Source of the DNA: Escherichia coli | GTDB taxonomy: Bacteria; Pseudomonadota; Gammaproteobacteria; Enterobacterales; Enterobacteriaceae | Length of the DNA stretch: 64,000 bases | Assembly (NCBI RefSeq): GCF_003018235.1 | Contig: NZ_CP027437.1 | Reading direction: 5' to 3' (one strand) | Part shown: positions 51,342 through 57,908 of the stretch, piece by piece | Numbering within the stretch: the stretch's first letter is position 1 | Layout: each line of letters starts with the position of its first letter | Notes under the pieces: model-generated | The model's database searches: none | Seen by the model: the letters and a program-made list of their open reading frames with translations, nothing else | What the model was told of the DNA's origin: nothing | Translations under genes and position numbers: made by a program

Positions 51342-53420
51342 TTAAATCAATGCCGATTTATCAATTCCAAGCCGCTTCATCCGTGACAGCAGGGTCGTGC
51401 GTTTCAGCCCCAGACGTTGCGCAGCGCCTTTAGGCCCGGCAACCACGCCGTTGGTTTCTTTCAGCACGCGAACAATCAACTGATATTCATCTTCGCCCTC
51501 CTGGGCGACAACCGTTGCGGCAGGCGGCGTTTCAGGCTCCGGTAAAGCAATATCAGGCAATGACAGCTGCAGCACGTTGCCGCGTGTTAGCAATACCGCG
51601 CGCTCAATGACATTTTCCAGTTCGCGTACGTTACCCGGCCACTCCATGTTGCTCAAGGTGCGCAGCGTCTCCGCAGGAATGCTGTCGATATTGCGCCCCA
51701 GACGACGGGCAATTTTGAAGGTAAAGGCTTTCGCCAGCAGCGGAATATCTTCCGGACGCTCGCGTAGTGGCGGCAGGTGGATCGGGAATACATTCAGGCG
51801 GTAATAGAGATCGCTACGGAACTCACGGTCGGCGACCATTTTTTTCAGATCGCGGTTAGTTGCGGCGATTAGACGCACGTCCGTCTGAATGATTTTGTTG
51901 CTGCCGAGACGTTCAAACTCCTGTTCCTGTAATACACGCAGCAACTTCGGCTGTAACTCCAGTGGCATATCGCCCACTTCGTCGAGGAACAGGGAGCTTT
52001 TATCCGCCAGTTCAAAACGACCGATACGCTGGGCGCTGGCACCGGTAAAAGCCCCACGCTCATGACCAAACAGATCGCTCTCCAGCAATCCGGCAGGCAT
52101 TGCCGCGCAGTTCATTTTGACCATGCGGCGATTATTACGCCCACTGAGATTATGGATAGCACGGGCAATCAGCTCTTTACCCGTGCCAGTTTCACCGAGG
52201 ATCAGCACGGTACTGTCACTTTGCGCCACCATTTCAACTTGTTTAAGTACGCTGTACATGGCTTCGCTGCGGCCAATAATCTCGCCAAATTCACTATCAA
52301 CATTGTTGAGCTGCTCGGTCAGGGCGAGGTTTTCATCAACCAGCCGTTCTTTCAGACGATGAATTTCCTGATAGGCGAGGGCGTTATCGACAGCGATTGC
52401 CACACGTTCGGCAATCTGGCGCAGTAAGCTCAGATTGGTAGTGGTAAATACTTTCTCTTCGCATTGCGCCAGTTTCAGCACGCCCAGCATGGTGTTGCCA
52501 GACATCAGCGGTAACAGGCACAAGGTTTGAATCTGGTTGCCCCAGGTGTCGAACAACATGCGTTCATAGGGGGCTAAATCGTCCCGCTCGTGGAGATTAA
52601 TCAACAACATCTCTTTACTTTTGAACACGCGTTCGGTGAGGGTTCCGGCTTCATCGACTTCGCTCTGTTCGTGGGCGGGATGTTGTTTATCAAGATAGTG
52701 AGTGGAGTAGATGTTGAGTTTGTTTTTACGGTGGCTGCGTAAGACAATGCTGATATCGTCAATGTCGAAATAGTAATGGATTTCTTTGGCGACTTCGCTG
52801 ACCAGTTCGTCCATATCCAGGCGGGAAAGCACCGCGTTGGTAATGGCAACCAGGATGCGGAAGTTATCGCGCTCCCGGCATAACAACTCATAGTCGACAT
52901 TATTGACGACGCGGCTCTGGATTTGTTCGGTGACGACAGAAACGATCTGCGTAAATGTTTGCAGACGATTGAACTCTTTTTCGCTCCAGGGGCGATCGTC
53001 ATAACGAATAAATTCACAGCCACCAAAAATATGCCCTTCCGCCGCCAGTGGCATCAGGCAATAGTGACCAAATTTTGGGTATAGCCCACCTGCGGCCAGC
53101 TGCGGCCAGGTTTCACAAAATTCTTCGTAACTGCAATGCAGCGTATCAGGGCGCGACAAAATGCTGCGTACCGGACCGTGTGCCAGAACAGTTTCGTCTT
53201 CATATTTAATGGGGGTGTCTTTTTCACGCGATGCGTAATAAGACGCACGTTGAGTCTGCGCTTGCCACAACACAATAGCCGCGTTGTCGGCGAGCGCAGA
53301 ACGCTTTACCAGTTGCGAAAGAGCCTCACACAGCGAGGCCAGATCGGGCTGCTGCAATAGTGTCCGAGTGATGTCGAACAACCCTTGTTGTCCGAGATCA
53401 CTCATCGGTGTATATGACAT
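51342..53420 (-). CDS. fhlA: Formate hydrogenlyase transcriptional activator (sigma54-dependent)
   Basis: ORF 51342-53456; start set at MSYTPMSDLGQQGLFD; GAF domains, AAA+ sigma54-interaction domain (GETGTGKE, GAFTGA) and C-terminal HTH. Confidence 0.95.
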   Translation of the reverse strand: MSYTPMSDLGQQGLFDITRTLLQQPDLASLCEALSQLVKRSALADNAAIVLWQAQTQRASYYASREKDTPIKYEDETVLAHGPVRSILSRPDTLHCSYEEFCETWPQLAAGGLYPKFGHYCLMPLAAEGHIFGGCEFIRYDDRPWSEKEFNRLQTFTQIVSVVTEQIQSRVVNNVDYELLCRERDNFRILVAITNAVLSRLDMDELVSEVAKEIHYYFDIDDISIVLRSHRKNKLNIYSTHYLDKQHPAHEQSEVDEAGTLTERVFKSKEMLLINLHERDDLAPYERMLFDTWGNQIQTLCLLPLMSGNTMLGVLKLAQCEEKVFTTTNLSLLRQIAERVAIAVDNALAYQEIHRLKERLVDENLALTEQLNNVDSEFGEIIGRSEAMYSVLKQVEMVAQSDSTVLILGETGTGKELIARAIHNLSGRNNRRMVKMNCAAMPAGLLESDLFGHERGAFTGASAQRIGRFELADKSSLFLDEVGDMPLELQPKLLRVLQEQEFERLGSNKIIQTDVRLIAATNRDLKKMVADREFRSDLYYRLNVFPIHLPPLRERPEDIPLLAKAFTFKIARRLGRNIDSIPAETLRTLSNMEWPGNVRELENVIERAVLLTRGNVLQLSLPDIALPEPETPPAATVVAQEGEDEYQLIVRVLKETNGVVAGPKGAAQRLGLKRTTLLSRMKRLGIDKSALI

Positions 53421-53493
53421 TTTGTTCTTCCAGGAAAGCACCGCAAAGCGGTGCAAAAGGTCATTGACTAACTATAGGAGATTTAGAATTTTA

Positions 53494-56760: not shown

Positions 56761-57111
56761 TCACTCCTGGTCTATTTCTATCCGCCGAATCTGTAAACCG
56801 TCGTCTGCCACAATCTGTAGCATGTCACCATGACACTGTGGACAGCGGCGGACGCGCTGGGTCAGTAGCGTCACATACTGTTGGCATGTTTCACACCAGC
56901 ATTCGGCCTCTTGTTCTTCGAGGTGCAGTTTACAACCTTCCGCCACGCTGCCGCGGCAAACCAGATCAAAACAAAAGGCAAGAGAGCTGGTTTCGACACA
57001 AGAAAATGCGCCAATTTTGAGCCAGACCCCAGTTACGCGTTTTGCGCCGTGTTTTGCGGCCTGCTGTTCGATCAATTCCAGTGCCCGTTGGCAGAGGGTT
57101 ATTTCGTGCAT
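56761..57111 (-). CDS. hypA: Hydrogenase nickel incorporation protein HypA
   Basis: ORF 56761-57123; start set at MHEITLCQ (116 aa); zinc motif CxxC...CxxC. Confidence 0.93.
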   Translation of the reverse strand: MHEITLCQRALELIEQQAAKHGAKRVTGVWLKIGAFSCVETSSLAFCFDLVCRGSVAEGCKLHLEEQEAECWCETCQQYVTLLTQRVRRCPQCHGDMLQIVADDGLQIRRIEIDQE

Positions 57112-57141
57112 ATCGCCTCCCATTAACTATTGCCAGCTACA

Positions 57142-57158
57142 AGCAATAATTGTGCCAG
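57142..57158 (-). promoter_or_regulatory. Sigma54 (-24/-12) promoter for the hyp operon
   Basis: Minus-strand ctGGcacaattattGCttg (GG-N10-GC with TTGC), about 30 bp upstream of hypA. Confidence 0.7.
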
Positions 57159-57192
57159 TGTTGATTATCCCTGCAGTGAATAATGTCGATGA

Positions 57193-57213
57193 TGTCGAAA
57201 TGACACGTCGACA
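57193..57213. promoter_or_regulatory. Inverted repeat between the divergent sigma54 promoters (candidate FhlA upstream activating site)
   Basis: tgtcga aatgacacg tcgaca inverted repeat. Confidence 0.45.
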
Positions 57214-57270
57214 CGGCGACGAAATTCATCTTTAGCTTAAAAATCGCTTTAATAACAATGAATTAAAAGT

Positions 57271-57286
57271 TGGCACAGAAAATGCT
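57271..57286 (+). promoter_or_regulatory. Sigma54 (-24/-12) promoter for the hyc operon
   Basis: tGGcacagaaaatGCt (GG-N10-GC), about 37 bp upstream of hycA. Confidence 0.7.
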
Positions 57287-57322
57287 TAAAGCTGGCATCT
57301 CTGTTAAACGGGTAACCTGACA

Positions 57323-57784
57323 ATGACTATTTGGGAAATAAGCGAGAAAGCCGATTACATCGCACAGCGGCATCGTCGCCTACAGGACCAGTGGCACATC
57401 TACTGCAATTCGCTGGTTCAGGGGATCACGTTATCGAAAGCGCGCCTGCATCACGCCATGAGCTGCGCGCCGGACAAAGAACTCTGTTTCGTCCTTTTTG
57501 AACATTTTCGTATTTACGTCACCCTGGCGGATGGCTTTAACAGCCACACCATCGAGTATTACGTCGAAACAAAAGATGGTGAAGACAAACAGCGGATTGC
57601 GCAGGCGCAACTGAGCATTGACGGCATGATTGATGGCAAGGTCAACATCCGCGATCGCGAACAGGTTCTGGAACACTATCTCGAAAAAATCGCTGGCGTT
57701 TACGACAGCTTATACACCGCCATTGAAAACAATGTGCCGGTGAATTTAAGCCAACTGGTAAAGGGACAAAGCCCGGCAGCATGA
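57323..57784 (+). CDS. hycA: Formate hydrogenlyase regulatory protein HycA
   Basis: 153-aa ORF; first gene of hyc operon by synteny. Confidence 0.9.
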   Translation: MTIWEISEKADYIAQRHRRLQDQWHIYCNSLVQGITLSKARLHHAMSCAPDKELCFVLFEHFRIYVTLADGFNSHTIEYYVETKDGEDKQRIAQAQLSIDGMIDGKVNIRDREQVLEHYLEKIAGVYDSLYTAIENNVPVNLSQLVKGQSPAA

Positions 57785-57908
57785 GCTGAGGCTTTGCCCG
57801 TTTTGCAGGCGTTACGCCTGTTTGGGGATGGGCGTGTCGATGAGTGTCGAAAATGACATTTCATCGGCATGTTTTCGTCAAAAATGACAATCACCTGAGG
57901 AATGCCTG

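Follow-up and report, generated by a model that had tools for sequence, protein, structure and literature searches.

The hycA and hypA promoters of Escherichia coli K-12, together with their FhlA enhancer, are long-established parts of the formate regulon, described by the Bock laboratory between 1990 and 2000 and recorded in EcoCyc and RegulonDB. Two other FhlA/sigma-54 targets of E. coli, fdhF and hydN-hypF, likewise combine a -24/-12 promoter with GTCG/GTCA-type units about 100 bp upstream. The hydN units read TGTCATCACATGTCATCGTCACTAGTGTCGATGACA and are followed by an AT-rich tract before CTGGCAT, while those of fdhF read TTTCGTTTCGTCACGTCAAAACTGACGACA, the K-12 fdhF array scoring 8.6 bits with the 14-nt FhlA matrix described below. 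Both differ from the hyc-hyp region in having single, unidirectional promoters and another order and spacing of the units. Back-to-back -24/-12 promoters placed around shared activator sites are also found at zraP/zraSR, where the activator is ZraR and the signal is different; to our knowledge, that system has no second, distal enhancer. The zraP and zraS (hydH) promoters both appear on the sigma-54 ChIP-chip list of Salmonella (PMC3844500).

Here we analyse the same locus as the K-12 hyc-hyp region in a 64-kb stretch of E. coli DNA (contig NZ_CP027437.1; this whole stretch is referred to as the window). The region is the long-studied hyp-hyc control region of E. coli, a feature that was already known and whose accepted model our analysis leaves unchanged. 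We consider it close to certain that it is the divergent control region in which back-to-back sigma-54 promoters are served by one or more FhlA arrays through the mechanism proposed below. The hypA ATG at 57111 on the minus strand and the hycA ATG at 57323 on the plus strand are separated by a 211-bp spacer, and a longer hypA reading frame starting at 57123 was dismissed as an artefact of the rule used to call open reading frames. The segment 56700-57800, annotated as hypB, hypA and hycA, has matches in 5,425 of 5,426 complete E. coli genomes, many of them at 100% identity. MG1655 differs from the spacer at four bases (57175, 57246, 57260 and 57278; subtracting a window coordinate from 2907758 gives the K-12 coordinate), and nothing of substance sets the two apart: one substitution affects a non-consensus spacer position of P_hyc and another the N4 stretch of the IHF-like site. 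The hycA product mediates negative feedback as an anti-activator and the fhlA product mediates positive feedback; since hycA is the first gene of one operon and fhlA the last gene of the other, both kinds of feedback meet in this region. The coordinates of all features are collected in the table.

Features of the hyp-hyc control region and its surroundings, in window coordinates
Feature	Position	Strand	Sequence	Basis or remark
fhlA	51345-53456	-		Pfam GAF, Sigma54_activat, AAA lid and HTH_8; at the end of the hyp operon
hypA start codon	57111-57109	-		K-12 annotation; protein MHEITLC...; Pfam HypA
hypA ribosome-binding site	complement of 57116-57120	-	GGAGG	columns invariant, with the start codon, in the spacer alignment
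Predicted hyp transcription start	57131 (+/-2 nt)	-		promoter geometry (12 nt beyond the -12 C); leaves 20 nt to the hypA ATG
P_hyp, sigma-54 (-24/-12) promoter of hypABCDE-fhlA	57158-57142	-	CTGGCACAATTATTGCT	
Candidate FhlA enhancer (UAS) array	57184-57213		TGTCGAtgaTGTCGAAATGACAcGTCGACA	matrix match, consensus half, conservation
Conserved core of the array	57184-57187 and 57193-57209		TGwCGAAATGACAyGTC; TGTCGAAATGACA	
Degenerate extension of the array	to 57225		GCGACGAAAT	
IHF-like site	57253-57265	+	TAACAATGAATTA	one mismatch to WATCAANNNNTTR; the hyc -24 element follows 18 nt downstream
P_hyc, sigma-54 (-24/-12) promoter of hycABCDEFGHI	57270-57286	+	TTGGCACAGAAAATGCT	57271-57286 reads TGGCACAGAAAATGCT
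Predicted hyc transcription start	57297 (+/-2 nt)	+		promoter geometry (12 nt beyond the -12 C); leaves 26 nt to the hycA ATG
hycA	57323-57784	+		Pfam HycA_repressor
Second FhlA-type array, part 1	57835-57858		TGTCGATGAGTGTCGAAAATGACA	holds rank 1 of the FhlA matrix
Second FhlA-type array, part 2	57872-57889		TTTTCGTCAAAAATGACA	holds rank 4 of the FhlA matrix
hycB start	57909			list of open reading frames

For comparison, we used 80 loci recovered in a scan for relatives of HycA in Escherichia, Salmonella, Citrobacter, Enterobacter, Klebsiella, Raoultella, Kluyvera, Kosakonia and other genera. All of them carry a divergent hypA, across a spacer of 188-223 bp. Conservation was read from an alignment of 81 unique orthologous hypA-hycA spacers from many genera, whose conserved blocks comprise the start codon of hypA and its ribosome-binding site, the elements of both promoters, the TGTC at 57184-57187, the TGwCGAAATGACAyGTC at 57193-57209, the IHF-like AATCAAnnnnTTAAA and part of the hycA 5' UTR.

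A preliminary description of this DNA had proposed back-to-back GG-N10-GC elements, one for hyp on the minus strand and one for hyc at 57271-57286 on the plus strand, and both proved right in position, strand and sigma-54 assignment, each corresponding to a motif under a K-12 sigma-54 ChIP-seq peak. In P_hyp, 57156-57155 supply the GG and 57144-57143 the GC, both read as the complement, with 10 nt between them; in P_hyc the doublets lie at 57272-57273 and 57284-57285. Both promoters fit the extended consensus TGGCAC-N5-TTGCW with GG and GC exactly 10 nt apart, and they are the sole matches to TGGCAC-N5-WTGCW in the 64 kb. The pattern TGGCACNNNNNWTGCW occurs exactly twice in the window, against 0.27 matches expected, and at least two matches were found in only 2 of 100 shuffles. 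When about 128,000 positions were scanned with an RpoN matrix built from 186 promoters (PMC7658346), P_hyp ranked first (18.5 bits) and P_hyc second (15.3 bits). Additionally, the hyp elements GCAATAA and TGCCA and the hyc elements TGGCA and TGCTT are invariant in all 81 spacers.

Published binding data agree with these assignments. In the K-12 sigma-54 ChIP-seq study of Bonocora et al. 2015 (PMC4591121), peak OS27 is assigned to hycA with the motif TTGGCACAAAAAATGCT (FAT score 91) and peak OS28 to hypA with the motif CTGGCACAATTATTGCT (FAT score 201), and both are marked as experimentally confirmed EcoCyc promoters. The hyp motif of the window is identical to that of OS28, and the hyc motif differs from that of OS27 at a single spacer base, 57278. 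The hycA/hypA spacer was also recovered by gSELEX in vitro with the sigma-54 holoenzyme (Shimada et al. 2021). In Salmonella LT2, the orthologous motifs were bound by sigma-54 in ChIP-chip experiments, and sigma-54-dependent induction reached 26-fold for hyc and 5.6-fold for hyp (PMC3844500).

The transcription starts predicted from promoter geometry lie at the same distances from the two ATGs as those given under 'Distance' in Table 1 of the K-12 ChIP-seq study (26 for hycA and 20 for hypA; PMC4591121). The 5' UTRs predicted in this way are of similar length among the orthologues, at 18-24 nt for hyp in 80 of 81 and 24-27 nt for hyc in all 81. The start-site supplements of PMC3415461 hold no entry near 57297 or 57131, and scans for sigma-70 promoters and for terminators returned nothing above chance.

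Some further features of the promoter surroundings deserve mention. The third-best sigma-54 matrix match of the window, TGGCACATCTACTGCA at 57392-57407 on the plus strand (14.9 bits), lies inside hycA in the orientation of hyc. We rejected it as a promoter: it overlaps the codons for W-H-I-Y-C and is probably a coding coincidence, since its GC belongs to the Cys codon, which is the synonymous TGT in several lineages. In E. coli, the segments 57131-57157 and 57271-57297 resemble each other in inverted orientation over 27 nt (78%), and the resemblance continues beyond the -12 elements up to a common AGCTGGCA at the predicted starts; the portion at the starts is not kept in other genera. Within the hycA 5' UTR (57298-57322), the positions of TCTC, TAA-CGG and AACCTGAC are conserved across genera, and this 5' UTR folded as RNA is no more stable than its shuffles (z = 0.55).

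Between the promoters lies a candidate FhlA array, which reads aATGTCGATGA-TGTCGAAA-TGACAcGTCGACA and extends from -113 to -84 relative to the predicted hyc start and from -53 to -82 relative to the predicted hyp start. Two published descriptions of FhlA sites are available, namely a 14-nt matrix (TGWC-RAWRAT-GWCA) derived from 13 characterised sites (PMC7658346) and the consensus CATTTCGTACGAAATG, which PMC4987338 credits to Leonhartsberger 2000. Over the whole window, the matrix places 57184-57197 (TGTCGATGATGTCG) at rank 2, with 15.3 of a possible 16.8 bits, and its ranks 1, 2 and 4 all flank hycA, a ranking that is partly circular because these matches are probably among the 13 sites. Of the consensus, the half CGAAATG lies at 57196-57202. 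Most columns of the core are 80-100% conserved among the 81 spacers, compared with 0-60% for the flanking spacer, with T or A at 57195 and C or T at 57206. The intergenic array is also a near copy of the array between hycA and hycB, GTGTCGATGAGTGTCGAAAATGACA, showing about 90% identity to 57835-57858 with two 1-nt gaps, and the kindred words TGTCGATGACA, TTTCGTCA and GTCAAAACTGAC occur upstream of hydN and fdhF in K-12. Physical binding of FhlA and loss of activation when the enhancer is deleted have reportedly been described, by Schlensog in 1994 and by Leonhartsberger in 2000.

The preliminary description had placed its candidate FhlA site on an inverted repeat within this segment, tgtcga (57193-57198), nine nucleotides and tcgaca (57208-57213). 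The repeat is indeed present at these positions, and it lies inside an array that matches the published descriptions of FhlA sites; the arms as drawn represent one of several overlapping pairings, the right arm TCGACA pairing also with a second TGTCGA at 57184. Given the matches to the FhlA matrix and consensus, the near-duplicate array and the kindred words at hydN and fdhF, we read the inverted repeat as belonging to a larger set of TGWCR units, in which it forms one of the pairings, and not as a free-standing dyad. The number of such units was discarded as evidence: the arrays reach 4 per 45 bp, and so do a third of the shuffles.

We also asked whether tgtcga-N9-tcgaca could be a chance palindrome, or the operator of another regulator, lying outside FhlA recognition altogether. 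The bare repeat is within chance expectation, with perfect 6+6 repeats with loops of up to 20 nt arising in 62% of shuffled 211-bp spacers, and its right arm is conserved to only 30-60% beyond the initial TC and is degenerate in Kluyvera, Pseudocitrobacter, Superficieibacter, Pseudescherichia, Kosakonia and C. amalonaticus. However, the left arm and the nine-nucleotide spacer rank with the best conserved positions of the intergenic region, they match both the FhlA matrix and the consensus, and their words reappear in the second array as well as upstream of hydN. Moreover, where the right arm reads TCGWCA, its W (57211) agrees with the W of the left arm (57195) in 37 of 43 orthologues, with 6 discordant. 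We therefore regard a palindrome unrelated to FhlA as very improbable.

The agreement between the arms reflects two forms of the repeat. Perfect 6+6 repeats are present in 37 of the 81 orthologues, 19 as TGTCGA/TCGACA and 18 as TGACGA/TCGTCA, and 6 more are mixed. On a tree of hycA and hypA, one-sided intermediates link the two perfect forms in Escherichia and in the Enterobacter group (E. albertii, cryptic Escherichia clades and two Enterobacter-related genomes), and the arms may have gone from TGACGA/TCGTCA to TGTCGA/TCGACA through one-sided states in at least two lineages. We take these paired changes as no more than suggestive, since they amount to only about two events. The paired T/A changes at 57195 and 57211, seen with their one-sided intermediates in Escherichia and Enterobacter alike, would also be explained if the repeat acted as a structure, be it a cruciform in DNA or a hairpin in RNA. 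Such a structure is the least credible of the explanations we weighed, and we give it hardly any weight: the segment lies upstream of both predicted starts and should stay untranscribed, single-stranded DNA of the array folds no more stably than its shuffles (z = -1.25), the independent events number about two, and many genera lack the right arm. An Rfam search of the region returned no credible match. We rejected a structural role for the repeat. Separately, eight Klebsiella/Raoultella loci (L037, L040, L044, L059, L063, L064, L070 and L084) carry an insertion of about 12 nt at the centre of the array, so that TGwCGAAATGACA is replaced by another palindrome of greater length (for example TGTCGATGTCGACGCCCCGGGGCTGTCATCGACATGTCG in K. 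pneumoniae).

A conserved IHF-like site, absent from the preliminary description, lies between the array and P_hyc. Of the 81 spacers, 32 have a perfect WATCAANNNNTTR, in each case 18-19 nt upstream of the -24 element, and most of the others have near-matches, and its C, AA and TTAAA columns are 70-100% conserved. Binding of IHF at the hyc region was reportedly found by Hopper and colleagues in 1994.

The second FhlA-type array is located outside the intergenic spacer, between hycA and hycB. It holds the best FhlA matrix match of the window, TGTCGAAAATGACA at 57845-57858 (16.6 bits), as well as the fourth, CGTCAAAAATGACA at 57876-57889 (12.2 bits), and its first part, at 57834-57858, reads GTGTCGA-n3-GTGTCGAAAATGACA. 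Among 77 unique orthologous hycA-hycB spacers, TTTCGTCAAAAATGAC (57873-57888) and GTGTCGA/GTGTCG are at least 95% conserved, so that the distal array exceeds the intergenic one in conservation. Relative to the predicted hyp start, the distal array sits about 704-758 bp upstream. Schlensog, Lutz and Bock reportedly showed in 1994 that FhlA binds a site between hycA and hycB and activates hyp from there, over about 0.7 kb, and 57835-57889 is most likely this hyp enhancer. The intergenic region had been put forward as useful for defining regulatory coordinates, and all the elements listed for it are there; because the second array sits outside it, however, the spacer alone does not contain the full control coordinates of hyp. 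The hycA-hycB spacer has a further peculiarity, an extra 60-70 nt after the hycA stop codon (57785-57830) in Escherichia, Salmonella and Citrobacter that is missing from the other genera. In E. coli this extra segment includes a hairpin, CAGGCGTTACGCCTG (57805-57819), followed by TTTGGGG, which could be a weak terminator or a pause between hycA and hycB.

The distances within the intergenic region vary in a regular manner. The predicted starts are 144, 154-155 or 164-168 nt apart across genera; the array is separated from the predicted hyc start by 75, 86-89, 97-98 or 109-111 nt and from the predicted hyp start by 45, 55-57, 67-69 or 78-80 nt. Array-promoter and promoter-promoter distances thus change among genera only by steps of about 11 bp, and in Kluyvera and the Klebsiella group the array has moved by one turn with the total distance unchanged. 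Steps of this size fit a helix-face-dependent activation acting through a DNA loop. Because the sequences share a phylogeny, the spacing pattern is to be read as descriptive and not as statistical.

That the intergenic array keeps phase with both promoters is also compatible with its serving the two of them. In this respect, it is conceivable, though in our judgment unlikely, that the array at 57184-57213 is a shared bidirectional enhancer from which one FhlA oligomer activates P_hyc and P_hyp alike, leaving the array between hycA and hycB an auxiliary role. The helical phasing of the array with both promoters and the set steps in the promoter-to-promoter distance speak for such sharing, but the phasing to P_hyp may simply follow from the phasing to P_hyc combined with a fixed distance between the promoters. 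Moreover, only some 53-82 bp separate the array from the hyp start and columns 57159-57182 lack conservation, so that a conserved bend site is missing there, the stronger conservation of the distal array compared with the proximal one argues for an essential role, and Schlensog and colleagues reportedly gave the distal site to hyp in 1994. It is tempting to go further and see P_hyp, the FhlA array and P_hyc as one phase-locked unit with a symmetric FhlA oligomer serving both promoters, since across Enterobacteriaceae the array moves, and the spacer shrinks, by steps of about one helical turn only, and the dyad arms have changed together in at least two lineages. We hold this stronger version to be slightly more doubtful still; if true, it would go beyond the textbook arrangement of one enhancer per promoter.

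Our preferred reading remains that the intergenic array probably serves P_hyc and the distal array P_hyp, an assignment that follows the earlier work. RNA polymerase with sigma-54 would form closed complexes at both P_hyp and P_hyc, the binding itself being shown by published ChIP-seq at the same motifs. Formate-bound FhlA, an enhancer-binding protein with GAF, AAA+ and HTH domains, would then assemble on the 57184-57213 array, a step suggested by the motif match and the conservation and consistent with the literature. An IHF-type bend at 57253-57265 may carry the array to P_hyc, which FhlA would then open by hydrolysing ATP, and transcription is predicted to begin at about 57297 for hyc and about 57131 for hyp. 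The distal array (57835-57889) most likely serves P_hyp over about 0.7 kb. The control by FhlA and sigma-54 that had been proposed for this region at the outset is supported by sigma-54 ChIP, by the FhlA matrix and consensus matches and by conservation.

The present analysis supplies exact window coordinates for a textbook regulatory region, which are of use for annotation and also for the engineering of hydrogen production, where this promoter region is routinely swapped or rewired. The comparative data add modest detail on how the region is kept among related genera, identifying the constrained bases of the FhlA array, the partial conservation of the inverted repeat and the spacing steps of a helical turn.
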